A stretch of DNA of 64,000 nt, from the IMG/VR virus record IMGVR_UViG_3300028581_002181, positions 32,001-96,000 of that record; one strand, given 5' to 3'. Of this stretch, positions 7,580 through 58,251 are shown one piece after another (position 1 is the stretch's first letter; each line of letters opens with the position of its first letter). Under the pieces are notes generated by a model. The model was given only the letters and a program-made list of their open reading frames with translations. It searched no databases and was not told the origin of the DNA. Source of the stretch: a virus. The position numbers and the translations under genes were made by a program.

Positions 7580-7921
7580 ATGAATAAAAAAAACATAACA
7601 CAAGACAGCATAGCCATATCTATTGAAATGATAAACTTTAATAATCAGTTAAAATTACTGAAAGATCAATTTATTGACAGCAACATATTTTTTTGTCAAG
7701 GATCGCAGTTTACTGTGAATCATTATCTATTGCAGTTATGTCAAAATTATATTGAACGCAAAAGGGATAAAGATGTGGTTTTATTGGATGATTTTCAAAA
7801 TCCAGTTTTAGTGACTGATCTTATTTCATTCCATGATACTGCGTGGAATCTATATCAAACAAATCTTAATCAATACTATACAGAGTATCAACATCTTTTA
7901 TCAAATAAAGGAAAAGTGTAA
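7580..7921 (+). CDS. Hypothetical protein
   Basis: 113-aa ORF with a strong promoter and RBS; first gene of the enzyme island. Confidence 0.7.
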   Translation: MNKKNITQDSIAISIEMINFNNQLKLLKDQFIDSNIFFCQGSQFTVNHYLLQLCQNYIERKRDKDVVLLDDFQNPVLVTDLISFHDTAWNLYQTNLNQYYTEYQHLLSNKGKV

Positions 7922-7922
7922 A

Positions 7923-8774
7923 ATGACCTCGCAAGGAGTTCTAATGTTTGCACACAATAATCAGACAGTGGACTATATCAAACAGAGTATATTTGCAGCA
8001 ATGCAGGTAAAAAAATATTTACAAATGCCTGTAACTCTAATTACGTCTAATCAGGCACACTTGTACATGCATTATAAAAAACATATTAAAATATTTGACA
8101 AAGTTATTCCTGTGAAAGAATTCGACACAATTCAAACCAGAGACTTTTACAATGGAGCTGAAAATAAAATAAATGATCTATGGAAAAATCATCTTCGATC
8201 CACAGCATATGAATTGTCTCCATATGATGAAACCATAGTAATGGACACTGACTATATTGTGGGTAATGCCAATTTACTAAGATGTTTTCAAAGCAAAGAA
8301 GATTTTTTAATACACCAAAAATCCATTTATATTAATTATTTCAATCAATCTGAATGGAAAATCAAATACATCAGCGACACAGGCATGGAGATGTATTGGG
8401 CCACAGTATTTTACTTTAAAAAAACTCAAAGAGTGTGTAAACTATTTGAAATTATCAATCATATTAAAAATAATTGGAACTACTATAGATTTGTGTGGCA
8501 AATATCAGAAACAAATTTTAGGAATGACTTTGCATTTAGTATGGCCATACATATATTAAATGGACACGTTAAAAGTGTTTGGCCTTGTAAAATTCCAGAT
8601 TCATTGTATTACATCACAGACAGAGACAAAACAGAACATTTTGAAAATAATAGATGGCAATTGTCACTGTTTACAGGATCAACTTATGTGAAAACAGCTG
8701 CCAAAAATATTAATCTTCATGTAATGAATAAATTTAGTTTGGATAATGTTATTAACAAGGAATTACAAGCATGA
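7923..8774 (+). CDS. GT-A fold glycosyltransferase-like protein (GT8-like)
   Basis: DxD motif (VMDTDY), GVLMFA N-terminus, YWATVFYF; start moved to the ATG at 7923. Confidence 0.6.
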   Translation: MTSQGVLMFAHNNQTVDYIKQSIFAAMQVKKYLQMPVTLITSNQAHLYMHYKKHIKIFDKVIPVKEFDTIQTRDFYNGAENKINDLWKNHLRSTAYELSPYDETIVMDTDYIVGNANLLRCFQSKEDFLIHQKSIYINYFNQSEWKIKYISDTGMEMYWATVFYFKKTQRVCKLFEIINHIKNNWNYYRFVWQISETNFRNDFAFSMAIHILNGHVKSVWPCKIPDSLYYITDRDKTEHFENNRWQLSLFTGSTYVKTAAKNINLHVMNKFSLDNVINKELQA

Positions 8775-9619
8775 CAACACAAGGATTTTGTATATTTGCA
8801 CAGCATAATAAGAATACAGACTATGCTAAACAAGCCTATGCACTGGCAATGAGTATAAAAATACAAATGCCCAACAGTAAAGTTTGCCTTATTACCAATG
8901 CAAACATCAATAAAAGTATTAGCAAAGTGTTTGACCATGTGTTGGATATTCCAGGCAATGATGAAGCTGTAGATCAAGATTGGAAAATTCAAAATAGATA
9001 TAAGATATATCAATGCACACCATTTGAACGCAGCATAATATTAGACGCTGATATGTTAGTTTTATCAGATATAAGTCACTGGTGGAAATTTTTACAGAAT
9101 TACAACATGTACTTTACTAGCACTGTAAAAAATTATAGAGATGAATATGTAAATAATGATTTTTATCGCAAGACTTTTACGGACAATGATTTACCTAATC
9201 TATATTGCGGAGTGCATTACTATAATCGATGTAGAGAAAATTTTAAATTTTTAGACCTTTTGGCAAATATTGTGCGCAACCATAATATTTTTTATTCAAA
9301 ATTTACTTCAAAAAATCAACAAACATGGTGCAGCATGGATGTTAGTGTGTCTTTGGCTAGTAAAATTTTGAACCTTACGTCAAAAATTACCAGCACAGAC
9401 TCATTTATCACTTTTACTCACATGAAACCTCATTTACAAAATTGGAGTACTGTGCCCAATCATTGGATGGAAAAAGTAAATGTTTATTTTGACTCTAACA
9501 TGAACATAAAAATTGATAATTTTCGTCAACAGGGAATATTGCACTATGTGGAAAATCAATTTTTAACTGATGATTTATTAAAAATTATTGAAAAAAAATA
9601 TTTTGAAAGGATTGAATAA
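8771..9619 (+). CDS. GT-A fold glycosyltransferase-like protein (GT8-like, paralog)
   Basis: DxD motif (ILDADML), QAYALAMSIK, terminal GILHY; resembles the preceding ORF. Confidence 0.6.
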   Translation: MTTQGFCIFAQHNKNTDYAKQAYALAMSIKIQMPNSKVCLITNANINKSISKVFDHVLDIPGNDEAVDQDWKIQNRYKIYQCTPFERSIILDADMLVLSDISHWWKFLQNYNMYFTSTVKNYRDEYVNNDFYRKTFTDNDLPNLYCGVHYYNRCRENFKFLDLLANIVRNHNIFYSKFTSKNQQTWCSMDVSVSLASKILNLTSKITSTDSFITFTHMKPHLQNWSTVPNHWMEKVNVYFDSNMNIKIDNFRQQGILHYVENQFLTDDLLKIIEKKYFERIE

Positions 9620-9620
9620 C

Positions 9621-10178
9621 ATGTTTGTAACCTTTGATACAGAATCAGGAAAGATTTTGAGCTGCTCTGTGAATGAATCTCTCAACAGTTTAGCCATAGA
9701 TAATCAATTAGGAGAAAAATTCATAATGGGAATTGAATCAATGTTTAGCTATAAGATAGAATATGTAGATGGCACTTATAAGTTATGCAAGAGAAATGTG
9801 GTACAGAAAGAAAATCTTATTGTGCAAAACAAAAAAAATACTATTATTAATCAAGGTGTATATAAAATTCCAAATAAAACAAATGATCACCAAGGTATTC
9901 TTATCAGAATATTAGAACAACAAAAAAAAATAGAATTTTTAATAGATGAGAATTTTAAAAATACACTTAAAATTACGGTCACAGATACAAATCAAAGAAT
10001 ACATAATTTTTATAGTTGCAAAAAACATGATGCTACTCAGTTGGATCGTATATTTGAAATTAATTTGTATGAATTAGCTATGAAAAAAATATTAAGTTTT
10101 GATTATACACCAAAAGATGAAGTGGATATTTACTGCAAAAAAGTTTTCGACTACTCTTTGGAAAGAATATATGAATAA
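9621..10178 (+). CDS. Hypothetical protein
   Basis: ORF coupled between glycosyltransferase genes; start taken at ATG 9621. Confidence 0.55.
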   Translation: MFVTFDTESGKILSCSVNESLNSLAIDNQLGEKFIMGIESMFSYKIEYVDGTYKLCKRNVVQKENLIVQNKKNTIINQGVYKIPNKTNDHQGILIRILEQQKKIEFLIDENFKNTLKITVTDTNQRIHNFYSCKKHDATQLDRIFEINLYELAMKKILSFDYTPKDEVDIYCKKVFDYSLERIYE

Positions 10179-11079
10179 AATTGCTATTAAAGATTGCGAT
10201 ATCGTATTTTTGAGCTATGATGAGCCCAATTGTGAAAAAAATTATGCAGCACTCAAACAAATAGTACCTTGGGCCAAACGAGTGCATGGTATACATGGAT
10301 CAGATGCTGCACACAAAGCCTGTGCTGCTGTGTCTGACACAGAATATTTTTTAACTGTGGACGGTGACACTCAAATTAATCCAAAAATATTAGATGTAAT
10401 ACTGGATTTGGATGCTATGGGCATGGACTCAAACTGGATATTCAGCTGGTGTGGACACATTAATGTGAACGGACTCAAATATGGCAATGGCAGTCTCAAA
10501 TTATGGACTAGAAAATTTGTGAATGAAATGAAAACACATGAAAATTACTCTGGTGCAGACAACAATGAAATAGAATTTTGTTATTTTAACAATTTATATC
10601 AGTTCAACGAAAATTACAGCACCAGTTACATTAACAACACACCCAAACAGGCATGGCGAGCTGGTTTTAGAGAAGGGGTAAAAATGAGTTTGAGTAAAAA
10701 TTATAGAATCAAACACATAAATGAACTGTGGTGGCAGAACTATCATAGATTGTTGATCTGGATGACTGTGGGTCAGGATCTGCAGAATGGTATTTGGGCT
10801 ATTGCAGGAGCTAGAGAAGGCTGTTATAGAGTACTTTGCACCATGTGGGACTATACACAGGTTAGAGATTTTAAAACATTAGAGCAATTATGGTTAAGTT
10901 TTAGTAATAATAATACTTGCAATGAAAAAGATGCCAAACAAAAAAGCATAATTTTAGGTAAAGAAATCAAAGATATTCATGCATTAGACTTTCCTATAGA
11001 ACCTTTCGACATTGATAACAGTAAATTTTTTAAAAAATTGTACCATAACCCACCCCGTACGATTAGAAAGACCATATAA
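10171..11079 (+). CDS. Glycosyltransferase-like protein (GT-A, DGD motif)
   Basis: DIVFLSYDEP...RVHGIHGSDAAHKACA...TVDGD...YGNGSLKLW...AWRAGFREGVK; paralog of the next ORF. Confidence 0.55.
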   Translation: MNKIAIKDCDIVFLSYDEPNCEKNYAALKQIVPWAKRVHGIHGSDAAHKACAAVSDTEYFLTVDGDTQINPKILDVILDLDAMGMDSNWIFSWCGHINVNGLKYGNGSLKLWTRKFVNEMKTHENYSGADNNEIEFCYFNNLYQFNENYSTSYINNTPKQAWRAGFREGVKMSLSKNYRIKHINELWWQNYHRLLIWMTVGQDLQNGIWAIAGAREGCYRVLCTMWDYTQVRDFKTLEQLWLSFSNNNTCNEKDAKQKSIILGKEIKDIHALDFPIEPFDIDNSKFFKKLYHNPPRTIRKTI

Positions 11080-11783
11080 TGTACGATATATTTTTTATCA
11101 GTTATAATGAAAGCCATGCTGACACAAATTATCTGCACTTAAAGAAAAGATTTCCACTAGCTCAGCGTGTGCATGGAATTAAAGGCATACATCAAGCACA
11201 TATAAAAGCAGCCACATTGAGTTTGACCAAAATGTTTTGGGTAGTAGATGCAGATGCAGTGATCAAAGATGATTTTCAGTTTGATTTTGTTGTGCCGGAC
11301 AAGTATCTTAATGCTGTGCATGTGTGGAGGAGTTCAAATCCCATCAATGAATTAGAATATGGCTATGGAGGTGTAAAATTATTGCCTAAAAGATTAACCA
11401 TGCAAATGGATACTAATAGAATAGACATGACCACCAGCATATCAGATGTTTTTTTTGCTAATGGACAAGTTTCTAATGTGACCATGTTTAACACAGATCC
11501 ATTCAACACATGGAAAAGTGCTTTTAGAGAGTGTGTCAAACTCAGCAGCAAAGTGATTGATCGTCAAGTGGACAAAGAAACTGAAAAAAGATTGTTGATT
11601 TGGTGCACAGTGGGTGCAGATCAGCCATACGGAGAGTATGCCATTGCTGGAGCCTTGGCAGGCAGAGTGTATGGCACAGACCACAGAAGTAATTCTGATG
11701 CTTTGAGAATGATCAACAATTTTGAATGGTTAAAATTAACATTTGTGGGACAGTTTCCACACATAGAAAAAGAAATATTATGA
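11079..11783 (+). CDS. Glycosyltransferase-like protein (GT-A, DAD motif)
   Basis: DIFFISYNE...RVHGIKGIHQAHIKAA...VVDADA...YGYGGVKL...WKSAFRECVK. Confidence 0.55.
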   Translation: MYDIFFISYNESHADTNYLHLKKRFPLAQRVHGIKGIHQAHIKAATLSLTKMFWVVDADAVIKDDFQFDFVVPDKYLNAVHVWRSSNPINELEYGYGGVKLLPKRLTMQMDTNRIDMTTSISDVFFANGQVSNVTMFNTDPFNTWKSAFRECVKLSSKVIDRQVDKETEKRLLIWCTVGADQPYGEYAIAGALAGRVYGTDHRSNSDALRMINNFEWLKLTFVGQFPHIEKEIL

Positions 11784-12781
11784 TAGACAGCAATATTCCA
11801 TTTGATAAAATCATAAACTTTGGTCAACGCACCATGCTGGACAGCAAATTATTTTCTGTGAGCTGGATCTTGGCTCGTTTTTGCAACTATGATTGTTCTT
11901 ACTGCTGGCCTTATGCCAAAAGCAAACAGAAAGATCACAGACCATTGTCAGTTTACACAGCAGTGGTGGATGAAATCAAACGTCAGGCCAGGTTGAATGG
12001 ATTCACTGACTATCATTTCAGTTTTTCAGGTGGAGAACCCACTGCCTACAAAGATTTTTTACAATTGGTACAGCACTACAGTGCTGATACTGCTCCTGAA
12101 TATCAGAGTATTCACATGACCACCAACCTTAGTCCTTCGGAAAAATGGTGGGAGCGATGGTTGGAAGCCACAAAAACATTGAACCGTCGCAGCATCACTG
12201 CCAGTTTTCATGCAGAATTTTCAGATGAACAAAAATTTGGAGATAAAATATTGTTATTGATGAAACACAATGTGTTTGTCACCATCAATCAAGTGATGGT
12301 GCCTGATAGATTCACAGAATACTATGACAGATGCGCAAGATTTAATTCCAGAGGCATCAATGTCACACTCAAACCACAGAGTGATCCCACTGCCAGTCAT
12401 GTGGTGGAGGGGTATACTTCGGATCAATTGAACACTTTGCAAACAGGTTTCCCTCAACGCATACAGGAAGGTGAAAATTACAAAGACTTGTTTCAAATTG
12501 AAATGCAGGATGCTCAAGGCAACAAGTATTACATGGATCAAGCAGAGCGATTTAATGCTTTTGGCTTCAACAAGTTTAAAGGATGGCACTGTAATGCCGG
12601 ATATCAAAGTTGTATCATCAGAGAACCAGGCGGAGAAGTCAAACGCAGTTACAGTTGTCATGATGAACCACTGGGCAGCATAGAACAAGGGTTCAAACTG
12701 TTTGACAAACCAAGAATTTGCATCACTCCCACTTGTGTGAGTTCAGCAGACTCAAAAATACCCAAGGCTAGACATGTATAG
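11780..12781 (+). CDS. Radical SAM protein with C-terminal twitch/SPASM-like Cys cluster
   Basis: CNYDCSYC, FSGGEPT, TTN, C-terminal CNAG...C...CITPTCV. Confidence 0.9.
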   Translation: MIDSNIPFDKIINFGQRTMLDSKLFSVSWILARFCNYDCSYCWPYAKSKQKDHRPLSVYTAVVDEIKRQARLNGFTDYHFSFSGGEPTAYKDFLQLVQHYSADTAPEYQSIHMTTNLSPSEKWWERWLEATKTLNRRSITASFHAEFSDEQKFGDKILLLMKHNVFVTINQVMVPDRFTEYYDRCARFNSRGINVTLKPQSDPTASHVVEGYTSDQLNTLQTGFPQRIQEGENYKDLFQIEMQDAQGNKYYMDQAERFNAFGFNKFKGWHCNAGYQSCIIREPGGEVKRSYSCHDEPLGSIEQGFKLFDKPRICITPTCVSSADSKIPKARHV

Positions 12782-13763
12782 ATACGAAGATATTAGAGAT
12801 ATTCATTTGGAAATCACCAGTAAGTGTCAAGCCAAGTGTCCCATGTGTCCTAGAAGAATCAGTGGAGGTCCTTTGAATCCGTTTATCAAGCTGGAAGAAA
12901 TAACTGTGGCACAATTCAAACAATGGTTTCCAGAAAAATTTGTTCAACAATTACACAGTTTGTTCATGTGTGGTAATTTGGGGGATCCAATCATATCCAA
13001 AGACACATTGGAAATATATCAGTATCTGCGTGAAGTGAATACTAATATTAGACTGGCCATGCACACCAACGGCAGTGCTAGAGATCCAGAATGGTGGAAG
13101 AGACTGGCACAGTTGAAGGTCAAAGTAACATTTGGTCTGGATGGTTTGAAAGATACCAATCATTTGTACAGGATCAGCACAGATTTTGACAAGATCATGC
13201 AGAACGCACAGGCATTCATCACAGCAGGTGGAGTGGCCAAATGGCACATGCTGGTGTTTGCTCACAATGAACATCAAATTGAACAAGCAAGAGCTATGAG
13301 CAAACAAATGGGCTTCGTGGATTTCTCAATCAAACACACTAGTAGATTCAAACAAGATTATTTACAAGTGATTGATGATGCGGGCAGACCCACACACAGA
13401 ATAAAGCCCACTCAAAACAGTTTGGACATGATACCACTAATTGAACAATCACAGAAAGAAGAAAAACCACATATTGTGTGCAAAGCACAAAAAGGTAAAC
13501 AAATCTATGTGAGTGCGTGTGGCAATGTATCACCTTGTTGCTGGTTGGATATGGAATGGATTCCTCCCATGCAAGAATCTAGAATTGATTACATGGAAAA
13601 AATTTCAGAATTTCCCAATCTGCATCGTCAAACGCTGGAGGAAATATTTGATAGCGGTTACTTTACCAAGATAGAAGCACAATGGGGTACAGTGGGATTG
13701 AAAGAATGCACCAAACAATGTGGTTCATTTGATAAACTAGGAGCACAATTTGTTGAAAATTAA
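12774..13763 (+). CDS. Radical SAM/SPASM-domain protein
   Basis: CQAKCPMC, GNLGDP, HTNG, C-terminal C...VSPCC...CTKQC. Confidence 0.88.
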   Translation: MYRYEDIRDIHLEITSKCQAKCPMCPRRISGGPLNPFIKLEEITVAQFKQWFPEKFVQQLHSLFMCGNLGDPIISKDTLEIYQYLREVNTNIRLAMHTNGSARDPEWWKRLAQLKVKVTFGLDGLKDTNHLYRISTDFDKIMQNAQAFITAGGVAKWHMLVFAHNEHQIEQARAMSKQMGFVDFSIKHTSRFKQDYLQVIDDAGRPTHRIKPTQNSLDMIPLIEQSQKEEKPHIVCKAQKGKQIYVSACGNVSPCCWLDMEWIPPMQESRIDYMEKISEFPNLHRQTLEEIFDSGYFTKIEAQWGTVGLKECTKQCGSFDKLGAQFVEN

Positions 13764-14358
13764 TATACAAGACGTTTTATTTTGGATGGATGCTATCAGA
13801 CAATCTGATGATAGATATCGCACACTGGAAAGTTTCTGGAAAGGTCAAATCAACAGCAAAGTATGGTTGATTGAACAATTAAAAAAATTACCTAGAGCAC
13901 ACAGTATGGATATTTTGATCTGTGGCGGATGGTATGGAGTGATGGCCACACTTTTATTCAACAGTGATCTGTATGTGAACCGAATAACCAGTATAGACAT
14001 AGACAGCAAGTGTGAACTCACAGCAAATACCATGAACAAACAGTATGAAATTGCTGGAAGATTCCGTGCTGTCACTCAAGACATGATGACTTATAAAGAT
14101 TATGATCGTTATGATATGATTATTAACACAGTGTGTGAGCATTTAACAACAGAACAATACAATGAATGGTTGAATTTAATACCCAAAGACAAAATTATTG
14201 TGTTGCAAAGCAATGACTACGTGATTCCTGAACATGTGAATCCCATGAAAGATTTAAATCAGTTTGTTTCACAAAGTAAACTGTATCCTATTGTAGAACC
14301 CAGTGAATTACAAACAGAGAAATACAAAAGATTTATGATTGTAGGAAAAAAACAATGA
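13750..14358 (+). CDS. Class I SAM-dependent methyltransferase-like protein
   Basis: Motif-I-like ILICGGWYG, acidic SIDID, INTVCEH. Confidence 0.65.
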   Translation: MLKINIQDVLFWMDAIRQSDDRYRTLESFWKGQINSKVWLIEQLKKLPRAHSMDILICGGWYGVMATLLFNSDLYVNRITSIDIDSKCELTANTMNKQYEIAGRFRAVTQDMMTYKDYDRYDMIINTVCEHLTTEQYNEWLNLIPKDKIIVLQSNDYVIPEHVNPMKDLNQFVSQSKLYPIVEPSELQTEKYKRFMIVGKKQ

Positions 14359-15023
14359 ACAATGAACAAATAACCAAACAAATATTAGAAAAATTTAAAA
14401 AAAAACAAATAGGTTGGTTACAACTGGATACTTCATTTGAAAATTACATTGATCATCAAGAATTATCTGCTGTGAATGCCTTTTACGTGGATCACAGAGA
14501 AGGAGAAAATCATAAAGGATGGCAAAGTTGTTGTGTGCATGGTTTGGGCATTACTAAAACTCAAGTGTCACAACAATATGGACATGTGGATGAGTTAAAT
14601 GCTCCTTATTATTGGACTGCTCTAACAAAATTAGCTCCAAAAGCTACTGAATTTTGGAAAAATTTTCCTGCAGAAAAATTTACTAGAGTTAGATTTATGA
14701 AATTAGCACCTAATGGATATGTAGGATTACACAATGATTCTCCAACCAACATGTTAGATAACATAGATTTGTTAAACTATCTATTACCTATTAATTTAAG
14801 CATTACTCATCCCAAAGATTGCATTATGGAAATAGAAAATCATGGAATAGTACCTTGGAAACCAGGCAGTGTATTTTTAATCAACATACTGAATAATCAC
14901 ACTGTAAAAAACAATAGTGCAGAAGATAGAATACACATGATTGCTCAAGCACACGTGGGTAATCAGCGTGAAAAATTTTGTGAATTAATTGCTAGGAGTG
15001 TAATAAAAAATGGTATACTTTGA
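14355..15023 (+). CDS. Fe(II)/2OG oxygenase (Asp/Asn beta-hydroxylase-like)
   Basis: RVRFMKLAP.G.VGLHND...HTVKN....RIH (HxD...H triad). Confidence 0.75.
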   Translation: MNNEQITKQILEKFKKKQIGWLQLDTSFENYIDHQELSAVNAFYVDHREGENHKGWQSCCVHGLGITKTQVSQQYGHVDELNAPYYWTALTKLAPKATEFWKNFPAEKFTRVRFMKLAPNGYVGLHNDSPTNMLDNIDLLNYLLPINLSITHPKDCIMEIENHGIVPWKPGSVFLINILNNHTVKNNSAEDRIHMIAQAHVGNQREKFCELIARSVIKNGIL

Positions 15024-23579: not shown

Positions 23580-23591
23580 GTTATCAAAGTA

Positions 23592-23635
23592 TATTTACCT
23601 TAATTAAATGCCCACATAATATTTTGCGATAAATA
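23592..23635. promoter_or_regulatory. Divergent late-promoter cores (GTAAATA on -, ATAAATA on +)
   Basis: tatttac 23592-23598 and ATAAATA 23629-23635 in the 61-bp gap between divergent genes. Confidence 0.55.
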
Positions 23636-23640
23636 TCAAT

Positions 23641-24339: not shown

Positions 24340-24377
24340 CAATTAAACTGATCAAGTACATTCAAATACACATTTAG

Positions 24378-25559
24378 ATGAATATTTCAAAAAAAATATT
24401 ACCAAACATAGGAGTAATAGGTGTTGGTCGCATTGGTCTTTGTTATGCATTACTTTTAGACCAAACTGGATATCAAGTGTATGCTTACGATATCAACACA
24501 GCTCATATAGAAAATTTAAAACAAGGTGTGGTGGATATTAACGAGCCAGATGTTTATAATTTGCTTGAAAATAATCACATAGTTTTTACCAACAATGCTC
24601 AAAAAATATTTCAAAATTGTGAAATAATTTATATTATGGTGCCTACTCCAAGTAACGCTGATGGAAGTTATGATATTTCTAAAGTTCAAAGTATTATCAA
24701 ACAAATATGTGAATGTAATTTAGATATAAAAGAAAAAATAATAGTTGTGGGCAGCACAGTAAATCCTGGAGATTGTAAAATATTAGAAAAACAATTGCAA
24801 GCATATCATGCGGGTTTGTTGTACAATCCAGTATTCACAGCTCAAGGTTCTATAATAAAAGACCTACAACAAGCAGAGATGGTATTAATAGGTGGAGAAT
24901 CTAATAAGGTTATAAAAAAATATCAACAGATTTATTTTGACATACAAACCATAAAACCAAACATACATGTATTGAGTTTGACCGCAGCAGAGATAGCAAA
25001 AATAGCTGTAAATTGTTACTTAACTACTAAAATATCTTTTGCAAATATTTTAGGAGAAATTTTAATCATGTCTAAACTGGATAATGAAGTTGATCTCACA
25101 TTAGATATGATAGGTTCAGATACAAGAATAGGAAAAAAATTTTTTAAATATGGACTAGGATATGGGGGACCATGTCTACCTAGAGATAATAGAGCACTGT
25201 CTCATTATGCGTCTAAAGTTGGAATAAAATTTGCTTTGGGTGATACTGTTGATCAATTTAACCAACAACATACCTTATTCTTAGCAGATTTTTTTGCAAA
25301 AAAAAATGTAGAAAATTTGCCATTTTATTTTAAAACCGTATCTTACAAATCAAACGTTACGGATATTGAACAAAGCCAATTATATTTGCTGTGTTGTAAA
25401 TTGTTAGAAAAAGGATTTATGGTATATATTGAGCCTATTCCTGCTTTACCCAACGAAATTCAAACATCATTGCAACAAAAATTTCAAGATTTAATTGCAT
25501 TTGTTACTATTACTGACCTACACAGCAGTAATAAAAAAATATTTGAAATTTTTATTTGA
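24378..25559 (+). CDS. ugd: UDP-glucose/GDP-mannose dehydrogenase family protein
   Basis: IGVIGVGRIG Rossmann motif, VPTP, GSTV, KIAVNCYLTTKISFAN, GYGGPCLPRD catalytic Cys motif. Confidence 0.9.
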   Translation: MNISKKILPNIGVIGVGRIGLCYALLLDQTGYQVYAYDINTAHIENLKQGVVDINEPDVYNLLENNHIVFTNNAQKIFQNCEIIYIMVPTPSNADGSYDISKVQSIIKQICECNLDIKEKIIVVGSTVNPGDCKILEKQLQAYHAGLLYNPVFTAQGSIIKDLQQAEMVLIGGESNKVIKKYQQIYFDIQTIKPNIHVLSLTAAEIAKIAVNCYLTTKISFANILGEILIMSKLDNEVDLTLDMIGSDTRIGKKFFKYGLGYGGPCLPRDNRALSHYASKVGIKFALGDTVDQFNQQHTLFLADFFAKKNVENLPFYFKTVSYKSNVTDIEQSQLYLLCCKLLEKGFMVYIEPIPALPNEIQTSLQQKFQDLIAFVTITDLHSSNKKIFEIFI

Positions 25560-25635
25560 TTATCATAAACCTGTGGTAATCTATAATAGCCTACATGGAC
25601 CAATGGTACAAATAAGTATTGAATAAACATTAATT

Positions 25636-26271
25636 ATGATAGAATACTGGAATAACTTTTACAAGCACGAACTAGGCACATTAGCCATTGCTAATTTGGT
25701 ATACGAGCCTTTGATCAGTCCTAACAAAAACATATTCAAAATGAATTTTAATAAAAATGAATATTTTGTCAATTCCAATATGACTGATGATCTTAGACAA
25801 AATTGGTTTTCAAGGGAAATTAATTATATGGAAAAATTAAAAAATAAACCATATGCTCCTGAAATTTTAAACATTGATCACAGAAATAGAACCATTGAAT
25901 TTAAATGGTATGATCGCAGTGTGAGTAAACTTATACACACTGGTGAAATATCCACAGTGCCCAACTGGCAACAACAGATCAAAGACATCGTTGCTGATTT
26001 AATGTCAGAAAACATACGCAAATCTAATCTTTATCCTCACACTTTTTATTTGGATCATCATAATCATATTCGCATTATGGATTTGTATGGTTGCAGCAGC
26101 ACTGAAGATAGATATGTGTCCAAAGAATTGTTGACTTCAATACTTTTTGATTCTACTCATCCTAGATTTGCTCAAAGTCTTACAGGAGCAATGTATGATA
26201 CTTTTAAACTGTATGAATTAACTATAAAAATGAATTATGGTGAATGGCCGGGAGATTTTTTAAATGCTTGA
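25636..26271 (+). CDS. Protein-kinase-like fold protein (degenerate)
   Basis: YAPEIL...IEFKWY; KSNLYP...IRIMDLYG resembles the catalytic-loop/DFG region. Confidence 0.4.
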   Translation: MIEYWNNFYKHELGTLAIANLVYEPLISPNKNIFKMNFNKNEYFVNSNMTDDLRQNWFSREINYMEKLKNKPYAPEILNIDHRNRTIEFKWYDRSVSKLIHTGEISTVPNWQQQIKDIVADLMSENIRKSNLYPHTFYLDHHNHIRIMDLYGCSSTEDRYVSKELLTSILFDSTHPRFAQSLTGAMYDTFKLYELTIKMNYGEWPGDFLNA

Positions 26272-26800
26272 ATACATGGGTAATAGTATGCACGTGATTG
26301 ATTGGGATTCTGTAATTAAAGAAGTTCAAGACCAAGAAGGAAAATGTGCCTGCAAGTATCTTCCTGTAAAAGAAGTTGCAGAACTTAAAGAGATCGACGA
26401 TGCACTGGGTAATTATTGTAGAGATTCCATTGAGTGGATCAATTATTATCCAGGCAAAGAATTTTCTATGGACATAGCTCATAAGTTTGGAGACTTTGTA
26501 AAAATGCCCAGAATGATTAAATGTTGGATATCCAAAGTGTTGCCTGGTAAAACTGCACCGTGGCATTGGGACTGGGACGTAGATTGGAAAAAATATTTAG
26601 AAAATGGTCAACCAATAAGATTCACAGCAATGATTAATCCTCCTGCTGTGGGTCATGTGTTTATTGTAGGAGACCAAGCATTATACAATGAAAAACAAGG
26701 TGATGTTCACAAATGGTCTGATTTTAGATCTTATCACGCAGGCACCAATTGTGGATTGGTTCCTAAATTTAATTTTAATTATTTGGCATACGCAGAATGA
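26264..26800 (+). CDS. Fe(II)/2OG oxygenase-like (cupin) protein
   Basis: WISKVLPGKTAPWHWD...YHAG.N.G....F. Confidence 0.65.
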   Translation: MLEYMGNSMHVIDWDSVIKEVQDQEGKCACKYLPVKEVAELKEIDDALGNYCRDSIEWINYYPGKEFSMDIAHKFGDFVKMPRMIKCWISKVLPGKTAPWHWDWDVDWKKYLENGQPIRFTAMINPPAVGHVFIVGDQALYNEKQGDVHKWSDFRSYHAGTNCGLVPKFNFNYLAYAE

Positions 26801-27354
26801 AAAATTATATTGGTAATTGTTCTCAAATAATAGATTGGCCCAGTGTGTTGTACTCTGTGCAAAATTCTAAACCTGCTTATCAAGGACCTAGACATAAAAA
26901 AGGACAAGATTTGCCTGGCATAGCTGAAATAAGTTCTTCTTGGGAAAAGGCTGGATACAAATTATTATCAGAAGGTGGAACCATTGGATGGGATATGTGT
27001 GTGCCTGAAGATAACTTTGATCGAAAAATTGTTGATCAATTTGCAGATTACGTGAATGTTGACCCTTTAAGCTGTTGGGTAAGTGTGATTCACCAAGGCT
27101 GTCATGCGCCGTGGCATTGGGACACTCAAGACAATGAGCAAGAGCTAAGAAAAATGGGAAATATAGAAAGATTTCATTGTCATATGGAAGATACTTTTCC
27201 AGGTCATGTGTTGATAGTAGAAAATGATTTATTTTATAATGCAAAGCAAGGAGATGTGTATAAATGGCCTGACAGAAATGCCTGGCACGCAGGTTCCAAC
27301 TGTGGTCAAAGACCTAAATATATTTTTAATTTTTTTGGAAAAAGTCGTACATGA
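26797..27354 (+). CDS. Fe(II)/2OG oxygenase-like (cupin) protein, paralog
   Basis: WVSVIHQGCHAPWHWD...WHAGSNCG..PKYIF. Confidence 0.65.
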   Translation: MKNYIGNCSQIIDWPSVLYSVQNSKPAYQGPRHKKGQDLPGIAEISSSWEKAGYKLLSEGGTIGWDMCVPEDNFDRKIVDQFADYVNVDPLSCWVSVIHQGCHAPWHWDTQDNEQELRKMGNIERFHCHMEDTFPGHVLIVENDLFYNAKQGDVYKWPDRNAWHAGSNCGQRPKYIFNFFGKSRT

Positions 27355-27905
27355 AAATTTTAATGACTGGCCATACTTCCCCTATAGGAAGTGTTTTGTT
27401 TGAACATCTATCTTTCACACACCAAGTCACTGGCATATCTAGGCAAAGTGGGTATGATTTAAATAAATTTGAAGATATTCAAAAAATTATAAACGACAGC
27501 ACAAATTATGATCATTTTATAAATTTAGCACACGTGGGAGATGCACAATGTCAATTGTTATCTTTAATTTATAAAAAATGGAGTGAAGTAAATCATTTGG
27601 GAAAGATAATTTCTTTTGGTACACTGGGTACTGAATTGCCAGAAGACATTTTAAAAAAAACTGGCACAGATTTAGATTATTTTAAAAAAAAAATACATTT
27701 AGAAAATATACACAAATGTTTGTCTATTCAAAAAATATTTGGCATTCAACCACAAAGTGTGTTGATTAGAATTTTAAATTTTGGAAAAAAAACTGGTTCA
27801 AGGCAGGGTGAACCTAGCTGCAATAAAGAAGAAATAATTAGAACTGTTGATTACGTATTAAATGAAACTTTATATATAAGCAAGATTGATTTAAGAAAAA
27901 TTTAA
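27351..27905 (+). CDS. Short-chain dehydrogenase/reductase-like protein
   Basis: KILMTGHTSPIG Rossmann-like start, FINLA, Y...K (YFKKK). Confidence 0.6.
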   Translation: MKILMTGHTSPIGSVLFEHLSFTHQVTGISRQSGYDLNKFEDIQKIINDSTNYDHFINLAHVGDAQCQLLSLIYKKWSEVNHLGKIISFGTLGTELPEDILKKTGTDLDYFKKKIHLENIHKCLSIQKIFGIQPQSVLIRILNFGKKTGSRQGEPSCNKEEIIRTVDYVLNETLYISKIDLRKI

Positions 27906-28708
27906 TAATTACTTAGATGATCTATGCCTAATTTTTTTCTAAATTCATCAGTGAACACACAATCAATACGTAATCCATACTCTTGTTCTTTATTAATTTC
28001 TCCTCCATGCCAATCTTGATCGTTCCAAAAAGCAGCATTAGAATTAATATACACTTTGTTCTTTGATTCAGGATTCCAGATATAGAATCCTCGTTTAGTA
28101 TTATGTCTTATGTGTATGAATTCATTTCGGTGATCACTGTAACCTTGCTGATTGCCATGTTTTCCGTCTAGATCTCTGTGTTCAAAAGGCTGACCGTCAT
28201 GTTCACAATGAAAAAATATCACTCTACCTATACGACTAATAATTTGTTGTGTAAGTAAATTTTTTATCCAAATGACCAATCCTGGAAAATATTTACTTTC
28301 TTCAGTAATCTGTCTTTCTGAATTTCTATGGTCCCAATCTCCTTCGTTCCATAGAAAGTAATATATGTAAGGATCTTTGGCACCCAGCACTGCTTTGAGA
28401 TAGCGTGTGAACTGATTTCTTGTGCGATAATCTTTGATATTGGCATAAAGATCATCACCATTTTTTCTAATAGGATGATCTGCGGAAAGAGCAAGATATT
28501 CTTTTACAGCCATATAAATTGGTTTCCAATTCAATTGATAACTCATGTCCTGCAGATTGAATCCTGGCGACATCCAAGTGCCTTCTTTGGCATATTCTCT
28601 AGCCAGAGCAAAACCTCTACATATTTCCGGATGTAATTTTCTAAAACCTTCTATGTCAAGATGTTGATCTAGAGCAATGTATGGTTTTCCACCAATTCCT
28701 CTTATCAT
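27902..28708 (-). CDS. Oxygenase-like (HxD...H) protein
   Basis: IGRVIFF...PFEHRD...FWNDQDWHGG...RID; start reassigned to ATG 28708 next to a late core. Confidence 0.5.
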   Translation of the reverse strand: MIRGIGGKPYIALDQHLDIEGFRKLHPEICRGFALAREYAKEGTWMSPGFNLQDMSYQLNWKPIYMAVKEYLALSADHPIRKNGDDLYANIKDYRTRNQFTRYLKAVLGAKDPYIYYFLWNEGDWDHRNSERQITEESKYFPGLVIWIKNLLTQQIISRIGRVIFFHCEHDGQPFEHRDLDGKHGNQQGYSDHRNEFIHIRHNTKRGFYIWNPESKNKVYINSNAAFWNDQDWHGGEINKEQEYGLRIDCVFTDEFRKKLGIDHLSNY

Positions 28709-28713
28709 ACAGA

Positions 28714-28729
28714 TATTTATTTGTAAATA
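28714..28729. promoter_or_regulatory. Back-to-back late-promoter cores (ATAAATA on -, GTAAATA on +)
   Basis: tatttat 28714-28720 and GTAAATA 28723-28729 between divergent starts at 28708 and 28748. Confidence 0.55.
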
Positions 28730-28747
28730 CATCAGCAATTAATTATT

Positions 28748-29320
28748 ATGGCTTTCAAACTTATACCATATTCCGACAATTTAGATCTCAGTGAATTTTA
28801 CAGCATAGCCAAAAACAAAGGCTTTGTGAATAATTCAACCAAAAAGATGTTGGTGGATTCTTTATCTAACGAAGAAAAATTTCAAGTTTGGATGCTGATG
28901 TGGGATGACAGAGTAATTGGATCCAGTGCAGCACACACTTTTCCTGAAATGGGTGCTGATAGTTTCCGCATAGCTTGTCGTATTTGTACCTTTACAGACT
29001 GTTTGCCTAAAGAATACCAAATGGTGCGAACAAGAGACACCATTAGATATCATCAAACCACAACTCAACAATTTTTTCAACCAGCAGGTATTAATTGGGC
29101 TGGCATAGGAAAAAATTATTATGTTACCACTAATAAAAATACTGACGGCACACAGAGACTGGTGCATTCTATTGTGGCTCCTACTTTGGAAAGTGTTGGT
29201 GTTTACACAAGAATCACCGACATGATGTACCGAGGAACCATACAGACTGTGTGGCGTGTGAATGCAGATGTGTATTTTGATCAATTAAAAAAAGTTAAAT
29301 CATGGCCCACATATGAATAG
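28748..29320 (+). CDS. Hypothetical protein, possibly GNAT-like
   Basis: 190 aa; VWMLMWDDRVIGSSA beta-hairpin resembles the GNAT core; weak evidence. Confidence 0.4.
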   Translation: MAFKLIPYSDNLDLSEFYSIAKNKGFVNNSTKKMLVDSLSNEEKFQVWMLMWDDRVIGSSAAHTFPEMGADSFRIACRICTFTDCLPKEYQMVRTRDTIRYHQTTTQQFFQPAGINWAGIGKNYYVTTNKNTDGTQRLVHSIVAPTLESVGVYTRITDMMYRGTIQTVWRVNADVYFDQLKKVKSWPTYE

Positions 29321-29999
29321 ATACAATTACTACTACAATAATGTACCAGGTCAAGGATTGTGCAGGAACAATCTTGTGTACACCAGTCTTATAAATCAAA
29401 ACAAAACAGAATTTGTGCAATGGTTTCACAATGACACAGAATATCATCGTGGACAAAATGAAGTGATGGATCCCATTCTGATGGAACAAAAATGGCAGAG
29501 AGAAGTGGACATGCTGCTGATGATGCATCACAATTTTCCAAAACACATTCCTGACATATTAGAACTGGACTATGACAATAAAAAAATTATCTATGGCATT
29601 GATGGTGTGGATTTTTGGGAACAGAGTCACACAGTGGGCATGGATGCAGTGCTGCCCAACTGGCGTGAACAGATGCTGGAAATTATGCAAGCACACAAAA
29701 CACTGGGATTATACAAGTATAGTCTACACCCCAGCAGTTACTTTGTGGTGGAAGGCAAATTAAAAAGTGTGAATTATTTCTTCTGCTATCATAAAAGTGA
29801 ACCATTTATCACAGTGCAGGATCATCTCAGTCATATATCACATGAAAGAAGACAATATTTACTGCCCAAAATGAAAGAAATGCACATTGACATGAACATT
29901 CCCACAGATTTTGCCAGCTTGCAGGTATTGTGTTTGGAAAGTTTTAGAAACAATTACCCCAAGGACTTTATAGATGCTGCCATAGCACTGTACAAATAA
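29313..29999 (+). CDS. Protein-kinase-like fold protein (degenerate paralog)
   Basis: WQREVDML...IPDILELD...YKYSLHPSSYF; similar layout to 25636-26271. Confidence 0.4.
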   Translation: MNRYNYYYNNVPGQGLCRNNLVYTSLINQNKTEFVQWFHNDTEYHRGQNEVMDPILMEQKWQREVDMLLMMHHNFPKHIPDILELDYDNKKIIYGIDGVDFWEQSHTVGMDAVLPNWREQMLEIMQAHKTLGLYKYSLHPSSYFVVEGKLKSVNYFFCYHKSEPFITVQDHLSHISHERRQYLLPKMKEMHIDMNIPTDFASLQVLCLESFRNNYPKDFIDAAIALYK

Positions 30000-30001
30000 T
30001 C

Positions 30002-31159
30002 ATGGAAGATACAAAAACTATAAGTTTGTGCGATCATTGTTATCGTCATTGTGCAGCAGAACGTGTCACACGTGCGGATGGAGTATATCTTGTAAAAACC
30101 TGTGAAGAGCATGGAGAAATGCAGCATATGGTAGAAAGAAATATCGAATTTTATCAGCAACTGCATTATGATGTTTCTGGTTACAGTATACCTCACGGCA
30201 CCATGGTTGAAGTCACTGACAGATGCAACTTGAATTGCCCCCATTGTTATCATAAACCTGATAATAAATTACAGGACCGATCTATAGAAAGTATATGTAA
30301 ACAAATTGCAGAAAAATTTGATGCTGAATCAGGTGCTGTGATATTGGCAGGTGCTGAACCCACAGTGCGTAAAGATTTACCAAAATTAATTATTCAAATT
30401 AAATCATTATTAAAAAAATTAAACAGGCCTGAAGATGTGTGCATATTAACCAATGGAGTAAAGTTGTCTGACAGAGCATGGGTGAAAGAAATCGCTGCTG
30501 CTGGAGCCACCATGGTGATGATTGGCATGAACCATCACACATATCAAGGTCACACGGTGCATCAAAAACAATTGCAAGGCATAGACAACTGTATTGCTGA
30601 AGGAATTTTTGTGTACTATGTGGGCTATACATTGGAAAGTTTGGATCATATGGAAGAAGTGTTGGAAGAAATTCAATCTTTGGGTAATAAGAGTTGGCAG
30701 TATAGGATCAGAGCAGGTTCCGACATAGGTAGATCACCCAATGAACCTAGATTCTTTCTCAGTGATCATGTGGCATTAATAAAATCTATCTGTGATCGCA
30801 AAGGATGGACTTGGGAAAAACACACAGCCGATGACAATCTTTATCACTACATGGTGAACATCAACGGTATCACTCATAGGATAATACAGTGGAGTGATCA
30901 TAAGACCATTGACTTGGAACAATTGCAGTGTGGACCTTGGTGTGACTTTGTGCCGGGAAAACCTGTAACAAATTTTTTACATCAAATTATGTTGCGAGAT
31001 GCTGTGGTGAATAAAAAAATGTTATTGCACGACACTGTGCCTGATCGTTATGTGATTCAATCAAAAAATATAGATTATAAAGAGTCTCAATGGACTTATC
31101 TCAGTTGGGCTGATTATAAAAAATTACAACAAAAAAGTATTAGTATGCTACGAAGTTAG
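30002..31159 (+). CDS. Radical SAM protein with N-terminal Cys/His metal site (MJ0619/Tes-like architecture)
   Basis: SLCDHC...VYLVKTCEEHG followed by EVTDRCNLNCPHC, LAGAEPTVR, LTNG. Confidence 0.8.
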   Translation: MEDTKTISLCDHCYRHCAAERVTRADGVYLVKTCEEHGEMQHMVERNIEFYQQLHYDVSGYSIPHGTMVEVTDRCNLNCPHCYHKPDNKLQDRSIESICKQIAEKFDAESGAVILAGAEPTVRKDLPKLIIQIKSLLKKLNRPEDVCILTNGVKLSDRAWVKEIAAAGATMVMIGMNHHTYQGHTVHQKQLQGIDNCIAEGIFVYYVGYTLESLDHMEEVLEEIQSLGNKSWQYRIRAGSDIGRSPNEPRFFLSDHVALIKSICDRKGWTWEKHTADDNLYHYMVNINGITHRIIQWSDHKTIDLEQLQCGPWCDFVPGKPVTNFLHQIMLRDAVVNKKMLLHDTVPDRYVIQSKNIDYKESQWTYLSWADYKKLQQKSISMLRS

Positions 31160-32513: not shown

Positions 32514-32545
32514 ATGCTGTGTTGCTCCTTGTGTGTATTACTGTG

Positions 32546-58250: not shown

Positions 58251-58251
58251 A

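Follow-up and report, generated by a model that had tools for sequence, protein, structure and literature searches.

The pelagimyophage 'host recognition cluster' includes glycosyltransferases together with radical SAM cassettes (PMC7029224), and cassettes of this kind are mentioned just in passing in the literature (PMC7029224). The amidation of a glycan uronic acid through a combination of Ugd, a PLP enzyme and an ATP-dependent step has also been documented (PMC11800397). We analysed a window of 64,000 nt (positions 32,001 to 96,000 of IMGVR_UViG_3300028581_002181) from an uncultured giant phage whose genome is about 32% complete, in which an initial annotation had described an island of about 28 genes, mostly for enzymes, between tail-fibre genes. 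That observation is confirmed and its interpretation is partly supported; the accompanying statement that no characterised phage pathway of this size was known overlooked the pelagimyophage cluster.

An ORF survey of the window showed that positions 7580-31159 are filled by 28 consecutive ORFs (g01 to g28) with almost no intergenic space (gaps of at most 92 nt), and the AT-richness attributed to the island was recovered as well, with 28-38% GC within it versus 40-45% in the fibre genes. The island consists of two modules, a division that is new here: module A (g01-g06) forms the conserved core and the final part of the fibre operon, and module B (g07-g28) expands it by an optional set of tailoring genes whose order is reshuffled. 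Fibre genes do stand on both sides, since f2 (834-2861, +), f3 (2861-5053, +) and f4 (5083-6519, +) match tail fibre/tail collar PHROGs and r1 (31140-32553, -, including TATAAATA) is fibre-like, with matches to Pfam Mtd_N and to a tail-fibre PHROG. To the left, the cassette is constantly bordered by a gene resembling f5 (6591-7487, +), and the right-hand flank is rarely conserved, with r1 homologues in just 3 of 80 loci both in the g18-centred and in the g06-centred survey. r1 also contains a repeat, which is a possible modification target. ATAAATA motifs lie ahead of the fibre genes f1, f4 and r1 and also ahead of g19 and g25: the exact sequence TATAAATA occurs once in the whole window, at 32546-32553 ahead of r1, and the shorter ATAAATA core is exact at 23629 (ahead of g19) and 28714 (ahead of g25). 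Two of the promoter cores reported initially were thereby retrieved, and the other claimed sites (7520, 23592 and 28723) are degenerate with respect to ATAAATA; the late timing deduced from them rests on two 7-nt motifs and is not supported as stated.

The four GT-A candidates proposed in module A (g02, g03, g05 and g06) are all supported. The paralogs g02 (7923-8774, +) and g03 (8771-9619, +), which are 25% identical, encode GT8-like (glycogenin-like) GT-A transferases: their family profile matched glycogenin-1 (GT8) with E=1.2e-6 over positions 1-110, spanning the DxD region, and D-x-D is invariant in the family, which was found in 43 of the 56 loci whose upstream flank measures 3.5 kb or more. 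The second pair of paralogs (34% identical), g05 (10174-11079, +) and g06 (11079-11783, +), encodes GT-A-fold nucleotide-sugar transferases. The predicted model of g06 (pLDDT 91) matched GT-A transferases (Foldseek E of 4e-5, VIA Z of 9-11.6), its PDB matches including SunS, WrtF, PBCV-1 A64R, TarS/TarP and B4GALNT1 as well as IspD/MobA, and D57 and D59 are invariant in its family. The g05/g06 family is very large and unnamed, none of its 4756 homologues having a Pfam domain. The GT-A fold is common to nucleotidyltransferases as well, as the IspD/MobA matches of the g06 model show, and this counts against the glycan pathway proposed below. The first gene of the module, g01 (7580-7921, +), encodes a small protein without family match, whose positional homologues in G001, G002 and the cultured Ralstonia jumbo phage RsoM2USA share about 20% identity and 9 invariant residues, and which gave tblastn matches in 38 of 80 g06-centred loci. 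Between the two transferase pairs, g04 (9621-10178, +; about 185 aa) is constant yet fast-evolving: in 43 of 49 loci, the space between g03 and g05 is taken up by a g04-sized ORF, and the family alignment displays few conserved residues and no enzyme-like motif.

Pfam Radical_SAM matches above the cut-off were obtained for exactly eight ORFs (g07, g08, g14, g15, g16, g17, g18 and g28), as many as had been counted initially, and all eight proteins keep an intact CxxxCxxC motif and auxiliary Cys clusters. The first two, g07 (11726-12781, +) and g08 (12774-13763, +), which both have a C-terminal auxiliary Cys (SPASM-type) domain, matched by Pfam SPASM in g08, were detected in 80/80 and 73/80 g18-centred loci, respectively. 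The paralogs g15 (19221-20120, +), g16 (20117-21106, -) and g17 (21094-22113, -) belong to the g07 family, measure about 300-340 aa (g16 and g17 being 37% identical) and carry a C-terminal Cys cluster; their CxxxCxxC begins at residues 24-26, so that there is no space for an N-terminal leader-recognition domain. Two N-terminal-twitch enzymes, g14 (17915-19228, +; 342 bits) and g18 (22110-23579, -; 397 bits), are above the curated cut-off of NF033640 (N_Twi_rSAM; 170 bits). g14 has an N-terminal Cys cluster in addition to CxxxCxxC at residue 142, and g18, the query of the synteny survey, has 111 IMG/VR relatives (57-100% identity) and no solved-structure relative by sequence search. Finally, g28 (30002-31159, +) combines Radical_SAM with an N-terminal zinc ribbon (Zn_ribbon_HMPTM, 48.6 bits for a cut-off of 27); among solved structures, GDGT-MAS/Tes (7tol, E=1.2e-17) is the closest, and g28 is of the HMPTM/Tes/TrsS kind, whose members methylate or form C-C bonds. 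The radical SAM and oxygenase part of module B occupies about 80% of the island.

The five HxD...H oxygenases announced for the island were also found, as oxygenase-like proteins. g10 (14355-15023, +) is an Asp/Asn beta-hydroxylase-family oxygenase that passes Pfam Asp_Arg_Hydrox with 40 bits, and g19 (23641-24339, +), an Asp/Asn beta-hydroxylase-like cupin oxygenase with a readable H-S-D...H and ATAAATA at 23629, scores 21.8 bits, slightly below the cut-off of 22.6 bits, and is present in 57/80 g18-centred loci. Family alignments show invariant H, D and H positions for the oxygenase-like paralogs g22 (26264-26800, +) and g23 (26797-27354, +), which are 34% identical (H101, D103 and H158), and for the 2OG/Fe(II)-oxygenase-like g25 (27902-28708, -; H185-x-D187...H242...R255). 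The latter was found in 28/80 g18-centred loci, and alignment places its true start at 28708, 5 nt from the ATAAATA at 28714-28720. Next to g10, g11 (15010-16395, +; 461 aa) is its partner, the two genes standing side by side in about 10 loci per survey set. Enzymes of the Asp/Asn-hydroxylase family have proteins and lipid A among their substrates, which counts against the glycan pathway proposed below.

The PLP enzyme, the QueC-like ATPase and the Ugd of the initial annotation were likewise recovered. The compact (283 aa) fold-type-I PLP protein g12 (16392-17243, +) is of the aminotransferase/C-S lyase/decarboxylase kind that acts on amino acids, with S-x-S-K (S-L-S-K-G) and D-G-A-W invariant in its family. 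Its predicted model (pLDDT 88) gave CobD, HisC and AspAT as top Foldseek matches and VIA Z of 17.5-18.7 to PatB/MalY, ACC synthase and similar enzymes, and no sugar aminotransferase figured among its top 50 VIA matches; this modelled resemblance points to small-molecule steps and counts against the glycan pathway proposed below. g13 (17236-17982, +) has an invariant SGGADS and C210...C231-x2-C234-x2-C237, and 16 of 18 family members match Pfam PP-loop (best E of 9e-6) and QueC (best E of 3e-5), all under the curated cut-offs; it is a candidate carboxylate-activating or amidating enzyme. g20 (24378-25559, +) belongs to the UDP-glucose/GDP-mannose 6-dehydrogenase family (Ugd), its N-terminal (117 bits) and central (79 bits) Pfam domains passing and its C-terminal domain being sub-threshold. 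Other assignments are leads only. g09 (13750-14358, +) is Rossmann-type and probably of SAM-dependent methyltransferase fold, with invariant GGWxG and D-x-D, marginal matches to Methyltransf_25 and Spermine_synth and otherwise language-model leads; it was found in 75/80 g18-centred loci and is the commonest non-radical-SAM companion of N-twitch radical SAM genes. The kinase-like paralogs g21 (25636-26271, +) and g27 (29313-29999, +) are likewise language-model (ESM Atlas) leads with marginal matches, the nearest named clusters of g27 being RIO1, Kdo and APH kinases (0.95-0.96). The SDR call for g24 (27351-27905, +; 184 aa) is reduced to a short Rossmann/SDR-like lead, its sole match being an N-terminal Rossmann one under the cut-off (Epimerase, E=0.0024), and the GNAT-like call for g26 (28748-29320, +) is unsupported, as no significant match was found in Pfam, PHROGs or PDB.

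The island system recurs with conserved order in more than 590 IMG/VR stretches, and a search of 185,579 bacterial species genomes found next to no copies of its PLP gene, which supports a phage-specific system and not a captured host LPS locus. Judged from these sequence searches, the enzyme families are essentially phage-only. The recurrent order is fibres, g01, g02, g03, g04, g05, [N_Twi rSAM] [Ugd-like], g06 and radical SAM genes. Dozens of uncultured phages have module A downstream of their fibre genes, and it is almost always accompanied by at least one N-twitch radical SAM gene and g09. In the g06-centred survey, a fibre homologue was present in 28/40 loci, and 26 of the 28 loci with enough flank had a co-oriented f5-like gene immediately upstream. 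A radical SAM gene follows g06 within 2.5 kb in 55/61 loci; nested between two GT-A genes are an N_Twi rSAM gene in 16/59 loci and a Ugd-like gene in 8/59, and full-length Ugd-like genes adjoin g06 homologues in 18/80 g06-centred loci. In G001 and G002, the cassette lies directly against r2-r4. The fibre linkage claimed for the whole island thus stands for module A, whose order is the same in RsoM2USA, and falls for module B, which is not position-locked: it is absent from RsoM2USA and adjoins thyX, 80-100 kb away from the fibres, in two relatives, so that it may serve another target.

Considering these genes and their synteny, our tentative reading is a cytoplasmic pathway in which a sugar or short glycan is made, edited and finally transferred to an acceptor that the phage encodes, the fibres being the most likely one. 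Within the infected cell, soluble enzymes would provide an activated sugar, for example UDP-uronic acid via Ugd, and radical chemistry (oxidation, epimerisation, C-methylation) and hydroxylation would edit this sugar or the growing glycan. The uronic acid could possibly be amidated, with an amine from the PLP enzyme and a carboxylate activated by the PP-loop protein, and the four transferases would then put sugars onto the acceptor, for which the fibre proteins encoded just upstream are the most likely candidates from synteny. The island product is probably an unusual sugar decoration, and perhaps one for fibres; we infer both the acceptor and the chemistry of the pathway. The sequence proposed initially, in which virion proteins would be hydroxylated and then glycosylated, is not supported as stated and becomes one possible route.

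Four other explanations were weighed against this fibre-coupled glycan pathway. The least unlikely of them is that the island makes a free small molecule or cofactor (a nucleoside-, aminoglycoside- or amino-acid-derived metabolite, antibiotic-like or a signal) that is not attached to virions: its mix of many radical SAM enzymes, PLP, PP-loop and kinase-like proteins, oxygenases and Ugd resembles natural-product clusters, the fold neighbours of g12 all use free alpha-amino acids, module B moves independently of fibres and the island has no recognisable gene for a scaffold or a carrier. However, a Pfam search of the island genes detected neither a core scaffold synthase (NRPS, PKS, cyclase) nor an exporter, no island protein has transmembrane segments, the presence of four transferases implies that the product is a glycan or glycoconjugate, and even in its minimal RsoM2USA form the fibre-linked transferase cassette contains an N_Twi rSAM gene and g09. 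We regard as rather unlikely a direct post-translational modification of fibre or virion proteins (cross-linking, epimerisation, methylation or hydroxylation) without a complex glycan, which is close to part of the initial idea. Modification of proteins and peptides is a classic role of SPASM/twitch radical SAMs and of Asp/Asn beta-hydroxylases, many RiPP maturases gave partial NCBIfam matches, and fibres are adjacent, with the r1 repeat as a possible target, but those partial matches cover the generic radical SAM core far under curated cut-offs, g08 and g15-g17, whose CxxxCxxC begins at residues 18-26, have no N-terminal leader-recognition domain, precursor peptides do not fit into gaps of at most 92 nt, and PLP, PP-loop and Ugd enzymes require small-molecule substrates.

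Remodelling of the host surface, in which the infecting phage would alter LPS or capsule, for example to keep competitors out, appears improbable. GT8 enzymes and Ugd are typical of LPS and capsule, and the same role was suggested for the glycosyltransferases of the pelagimyophage cluster (PMC7029224), but a Pfam search found no flippase, polymerase or lipid-carrier transferase among the island genes, which also lack any membrane-spanning product, the conserved synteny is with fibre genes and not with host-takeover genes, and the island families are essentially phage-only. The least probable explanation is DNA or nucleotide hypermodification by module B, yielding a thymidine-type or 7-deazaguanine derivative with g13 substituting for QueC. 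Thymidine hypermodification uses radical SAM, PLP and kinase enzymes (PMC8989533); g13 is QueC-like, the phage lineage has QueE and thyX adjoins module B in other phages. Against this, the domain searches of the island proteins detected none of the DNA-binding, transglycosylase or pyrophosphorylase type, g13 is under the QueC cut-off, G006 has QueE and module B was not found in its available 51%, and known DNA-modification systems feature neither GT-A/GT8 transferases nor fibre synteny.

If the fibre-coupled glycan pathway is correct, the variable module B would diversify the fibre surface among strains. Among cultured phages, RsoM2USA has the same cassette (ORF347-355) at the end of its structural module, and ORFs 356, 359 and 361, upstream of the cassette, are virion proteins confirmed by mass spectrometry. 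ORF355 matches f2-f4 at their N-terminus and f5 along its body, and ORF347 is the g09 homologue (26% identity). The proposed amidation would in turn be an analogue, and not a homologue, of the way in which glucuronamide is formed in the capsule of Campylobacter jejuni.

The region between positions 7580 and 31159 is filled by 28 back-to-back open reading frames (g01-g28), which are separated by intergenic gaps of at most 92 nt and include several sets of paralogs (g02/g03, g05/g06, g07/g15/g16/g17, g14/g18, g21/g27 and g22/g23). The initial annotation had described this region as an island between fibre genes that is AT-rich in parts, and this description holds: its GC content is 28-38% versus 40-45% in the fibre genes, and it is bordered on the left by three genes (f2-f4) that match tail-fibre and tail-collar PHROGs and on the right by a gene (r1) encoding an Mtd_N domain. 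Residues ~86-131 of the r1 product (32121-32258, minus strand) form about ten tandem pentapeptides of the type G-N-[VL]-[TS], each with an N-x-S/T sequon-like triplet. The source record is a single contig of 116,456 bp that CheckV estimates to be ~32% complete, and the DNA polymerase of this phage is closest to those of Atu_ph07-, Phosso- and RsoM2USA-type jumbo myophages (43-49% identity). Beside the polymerase gene, and outside the island, are found a gene for a tryptophan-halogenase-like flavoenzyme (56712-58322, minus strand; phrog_2928, E 4e-82) and a dehydrogenase gene (54805-55857, minus strand; phrog_9582). The island gave no megablast match in a set of 50,697 phage records, and none of its proteins contains a membrane-spanning segment. 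No Pfam or PHROGs family was matched by g01-g06, g11, g21-g23 or g25-g27, with g01, g04, g11 and g26 left without any assignment.

The first six genes (g01-g06, module A) comprise two GT8-like genes, two genes for GT-A-fold proteins and two genes for small proteins. A profile of the g02/g03 family, including homologs from three other phages, matches glycogenin-1 (GT8) with an E-value of 1.2e-6, only over positions 1-110 of 279, and the D92-x-D94 motif is invariant in this family, which has no Pfam match. The AlphaFold model of g06 (pLDDT 91) matches GT2-type transferases in Foldseek (E 4e-5), and VIA gave Z scores of 9.2-11.6 with an rmsd of 2.6-3.6 over ~135 residues, the structural matches including SunS, WrtF, PBCV-1 A64R, TarS/TarP and B4GALNT1. 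Since IspD/MobA nucleotidyltransferases tie with GT-A transferases among these matches (Z ~10-11), the fold alone cannot separate a transferase from a nucleotidyltransferase for g06. D57 and D59 are invariant in the g05/g06 family, and the modelled fold points to g05 and g06 as predicted nucleotide-sugar transferases of the GT-A type. This family counts 4756 homologs in a collection of 5.8 billion proteins and has no Pfam domain; when aligned with the g02/g03 family by hhalign, it appeared related only at the DxD strand (probability 0.2). Always flanked by the GT8 genes on one side and the GT-A genes on the other, g04 (9621-10178) and its positional homologs encode proteins of ~185 amino acids that keep few residues in common: a Gly close to the N-terminus, a Phe, and a Tyr close to the C-terminus. 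This fast-evolving protein could be an adaptor, or itself an acceptor, rather than an enzyme.

The remaining genes (g07-g28, module B) form a radical SAM/oxygenase block. Eight radical SAM genes had been predicted, and exactly eight island genes pass the Pfam PF04055 cut-off (32-63 bits versus 29.5 bits), each with one CxxxCxxC motif and all with extra Cys clusters. Two of them, g14 and g18, are full-length members of the N-terminal-twitch radical SAM family NF033640 (342 and 397 bits, respectively, over model positions 1-397, versus a cut-off of 170 bits), with N-terminal cysteines preceding the radical SAM core at residues 26/44/45/83/86 in g14 and 47/65/66/123/126 in g18. Scores of g07, g08, g15, g16 and g17 are far below this cut-off, and these proteins are not members. 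No characterised member of NF033640 and no publication naming this family were found, 14 model genomes contained no match above its cut-off, and a sequence-profile search of the PDB with g18 returned no solved relative. An HMPTM zinc ribbon is present in g28, and among solved structures the archaeal tetraether synthase is the one most closely related to this protein. In g08 and g15-g17, the radical SAM core already begins at residues 18-26. A RiPP maturation cluster was considered and rejected, as its defining features (a gene for a precursor peptide and an RRE/PqqD-like domain that recognises the leader) are missing: no PqqD/RRE domain was matched by Pfam in the island, and the intergenic gaps are too short for a precursor gene.

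Among the other enzymes, g10 belongs to the Asp/Asn beta-hydroxylase family (PF05118, 40.4 bits versus a cut-off of 22.6), while g19 falls just under the same cut-off (21.8 bits) and is only beta-hydroxylase-like. HxD...H triads are readable in both sequences, and the corresponding columns are invariant in alignments of the g22/g23 family and of the g25 family; sucrose-isomerase matches of g25 in the PDB were disregarded because they cover a non-catalytic stretch. The g12 model (pLDDT 88) is a compact PLP enzyme of fold type I. Each of the fifty structures that match it best (Z 17.5-18.7) is an amino-acid aminotransferase, a C-S lyase, a decarboxylase or ACC synthase, and none is a sugar aminotransferase; the top Foldseek match of g12 is the phospho-amino-acid decarboxylase CobD. 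In the g13 family, SGGADS and a QueC-type cysteine motif (C...CxxCxxC) are invariant, and 16 of 18 members match both PP-loop and QueC models, all below threshold (QueC E<=1, best 3e-5). With g13 itself reaching 13 bits against the 22-bit cut-off of QueC (PF06508), this protein is best called QueC-like rather than QueC on its sequence. The g20 protein passes the N-terminal (117 bits) and central (79 bits) UDP-glucose/GDP-mannose dehydrogenase Pfam models, the C-terminal one scoring 17.7 bits versus a cut-off of 30. The methyltransferase reading of g09 and the kinase readings of g21/g27 are only leads, the SDR call for g24 stood up weakly, and the GNAT-like call for g26 was lost, as no search returned a match. 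Sequence-profile searches of the PDB were uninformative for g12, g13, g25, g22/g23, g09, g26 and g18.

Conservation of the island's position between tail genes was also considered. Two surveys of IMG/VR and two long relatives, G001 (270 kb, 76% complete) and G002 (120 kb), led us to drop this idea for module B and r1; the related records compared are fragments, except for the complete genome of Ralstonia jumbo phage RsoM2USA. The g06-family scan gave at least 594 stretches. The recurring gene order there is f2, f3, f4, f5 (fibre genes), g01 to g05, in some loci an N-twitch radical SAM gene or a Ugd-like gene, and then g06; next comes a radical SAM block in some cases and, in others, a small number of N-twitch radical SAM genes (at least one) with the backbone genes r2-r4. 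Counted among loci with enough flank, g02/g03 are present in 43 of 56 loci and a fibre homolog in 28 of 40, with an f5-like gene immediately upstream on the same strand in 26 of 28. A g04-sized ORF occupies the gap between g03 and g05 in 43/49 loci, and a radical SAM gene lies within 2.5 kb downstream of g06 in 55/61. Nested between the two GT-A genes are an N-twitch radical SAM gene in 16 and a full-length Ugd-like gene in 8 of 59 loci. The g18 scan found 111 relatives, of which 80 loci were kept: there, g07, g08, g09, g12, g13, g14-g19, g21/g27, g22/g23 and g25 recur, and fibre genes, g01-g04 and Ugd do not. In many of these 80 loci, the radical SAM block lies directly next to thyX and further non-structural genes. 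Where this block sits away from fibres, its neighbour is usually ThyX. Some accessory genes of related islands are missing from the one described here, encoding a B12-binding radical SAM protein (514 amino acids), a GDSL-like hydrolase and a class-III aminotransferase (accessory genes and ThyX at L003:9450-10994, L003:7278-7904, L048:17785-18960 and L004:3182-3853).

In G001 and G002, a distance of 80-100 kb separates the fibre-linked glycosyltransferase cassette from the radical SAM block, and the G002 cassette directly abuts r2-r6, showing that g07-g28 and r1 of the window occupy a site that is empty in G002. A second kind of variation is seen in a 94%-identical relative (IMGVR_UViG_3300013131_003128, L002), whose proteins are 86-96% identical to those of the window across g07-g21 and then, from g22 on (window 26264-31159), 22-65% identical or without a match, indicating that the 3' end of the island (g22-g28) is swapped between close strains. 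A captured host LPS locus was rejected, since the synteny is phage-specific and the g12 profile had a single match in 185,579 bacterial species genomes. This match (54% identity), on a 4.9-kb contig of a Crocinitomicaceae MAG (JBDNIA010000261.1), most probably stems from a piece of phage DNA that was binned with the MAG.

A minimal version of the system was found in culture. In the 50,697 phage records, the only match of g06 is in RsoM2USA (MG752970; 43% identity, full length), whose ORFs 355-347 encode, in the same order as in the island, a fibre-like protein, a small ORF, g02-like and g03-like proteins, a g04-sized ORF, a g05-like protein, an N-twitch radical SAM protein and g06-like and g09-like proteins. 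This cassette, with 26-43% identity to the island, lies at the end of the structural module; it differs by having one nested radical SAM gene and no module B, and g12- and g15-type genes were not found in the complete genome. All its genes are annotated as hypothetical. ORFs 356, 359 and 361, just upstream of the cassette, were identified in virions by mass spectrometry and ORFs 362-364 were annotated as baseplate proteins, while ORF347-355 go unmentioned in the same paper (Ahmad et al. 2021, PMC8504454). Since RsoM2USA lacks module B, the minimal system comprises the four transferases, both small proteins, a single N-twitch radical SAM enzyme and a g09-like protein, and module B is an optional expansion.

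Late-promoter cores had been proposed at 7520, 23592/23629 and 28714/28723. The window contains a single exact copy of the T4 late box TATAAATA (32546-32553), 32 nt upstream of the r1 start. ATAAATA is rarer than expected by chance (11 sites versus 18), and 10 of the 11 sites lie within 35 nt upstream of a co-oriented start, including those of f1, f4, r1, g19 and g25. Of the proposed sites, those before g19 and g25 are exact copies, whereas those at 7520, 23592 and 28723 are degenerate variants. Considering these degenerate sites and the sparse exact motifs, late expression of the island is plausible but weakly based. Several ATAAATA copies are just 3-5 nt from an ATG (g19, g25, 37336, 59933 and 63275); late transcripts from these copies would have almost no leader.

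Altogether, the reading that suits the island best is a soluble, phage-specific pathway for building and editing a sugar or short glycan, with a genetic tie to the fibre operon. The sugar-tailoring reading comes from genes for a radical SAM enzyme and for a nucleotide-sugar dehydrogenase that are nested between transferase genes, which is the usual signature of such pathways. From synteny, the fibres would be the best candidate acceptor. By analogy with the glucuronamide of the C. jejuni HS:2 capsule, g20, g12 and g13 may amidate a uronic acid: in HS:2, the Ugd Cj1441 provides the uronic acid, the PLP enzymes Cj1436/Cj1437 a small amine, and the ATP-dependent amide ligase Cj1438C amidates the C6 carboxylate within the glycan (PMC11800397). 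The three island genes fit this logic by analogy only: the top match of g12, CobD, is a decarboxylase of the same kind as Cj1436, but g13 is a PP-loop enzyme, unlike a Cj1438C-type ligase, and g12/g13 co-occur only loosely with Ugd-like genes across loci. At its most complete, our proposal is that jumbo phages from water and soil attach to their own fibres a short glycan edited by an N-twitch radical SAM enzyme and by strain-variable radical SAM enzymes, oxygenases and uronic-acid amidation, forming a new class of virion modification; we put this forward tentatively, as a possibility held with low confidence.

Other products can be envisaged, each of which we consider improbable. DNA hypermodification, of which the thymidine systems are one example (Lee et al., PMC8989533) and which we place last among them, is suggested by the QueC-like g13, by the adjacency of the block to thyX in other phages and by the presence of QueE in the lineage. 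This QueE, of the 7-deazaguanine module, is 70-72% identical in three relatives (G001:C1:104643-105491, G002:C1:103384-104226 and G006:C1:25295-26155), lies ~6 kb from the fibre-linked glycosyltransferase cassette in G001 and occurs in relatives both with and without module B in their sequenced part. Two proteins that accompany the PLP and radical SAM enzymes mark thymidine hypermodification, namely a P-loop 5-hmdU DNA kinase and an amino-acid:DNA pyrophosphorylase-type transferase; Pfam and PHROGs detected neither the kinase nor a pyrophosphorylase-type domain in the island, in which g01, g04, g11 and g26 are unmatched. A free metabolite, with a product that is not on the virion, is unlikely and heads these alternatives; direct modification of proteins without a complex glycan comes after it as a slightly more doubtful reading. 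Remodelling of the host surface, which has been suggested for analogous islands (PMC7029224), follows closely; the island contains no membrane, flippase or polymerase component, which disfavours the making of a host LPS or capsule.

If the fibre-glycan reading is true, receptor-binding surfaces would be diversified between strains, which is directly testable in RsoM2USA: its minimal cassette provides a cultured model, so that work on this question need no longer be confined to metagenomes and can start at the bench. Were the product carried by fibres, the island would rank as a major, so far unrecognised source of host-recognition variation among abundant aquatic phages and would give NF033640 its first function. 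The scale is large, given the size of the g06 GT-A family and the number of related IMG/VR stretches; one family of N-twitch radical SAM enzymes and numerous proteins that lack a Pfam domain are packed together with this GT-A family.

The closest published description of such an island is the host recognition cluster (HRC) of pelagimyophages and cyanomyophages, in which GT8 transferases, Ugd and radical SAM cassettes lie beside fibres with no function assigned (Zaragoza-Solas et al. 2020, PMC7029224). Both are large, hypervariable and inside the structural region of T4-like aquatic myophages, and the mixture of fibres with glycosyltransferases and non-structural genes that characterises the HRC is found here in the flanking fibres, the four GT-type genes and the g22-g28 swap of L002. 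What defines the HRC is its place between VrlC and the neck gene gp14, whereas the island is likened to it by content. No homology to HRC genes was found, the g06 and g18 families having no match in cultured pelagiphages or cyanophages of the 50,697-record set. The HRC, known from annotation, was read as a system for modifying the host O-chain (PMC7029224).

A likeness to viruses that decorate themselves comes from the structural matches of g06, which include PBCV-1 A64R (2p6w, 2p72) and Mimivirus R699, at ~10% sequence identity. Chlorovirus PBCV-1, with its capsid glycosyltransferase A64R, and Mimivirus, with R699, use their own soluble GT-A transferases to decorate virion proteins in the cytoplasm, whereas protein glycosylation by the island is a prediction. 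Virus-made virion glycans occur in giant eukaryotic viruses and in mycobacteriophages, which glycosylate their own virions. To our knowledge, no virion-glycosylation system of a virus includes radical SAM enzymes. We rate the island as probably belonging with virus-encoded glycosylation in hypervariable fibre islands, to which radical SAM chemistry would add a new element.
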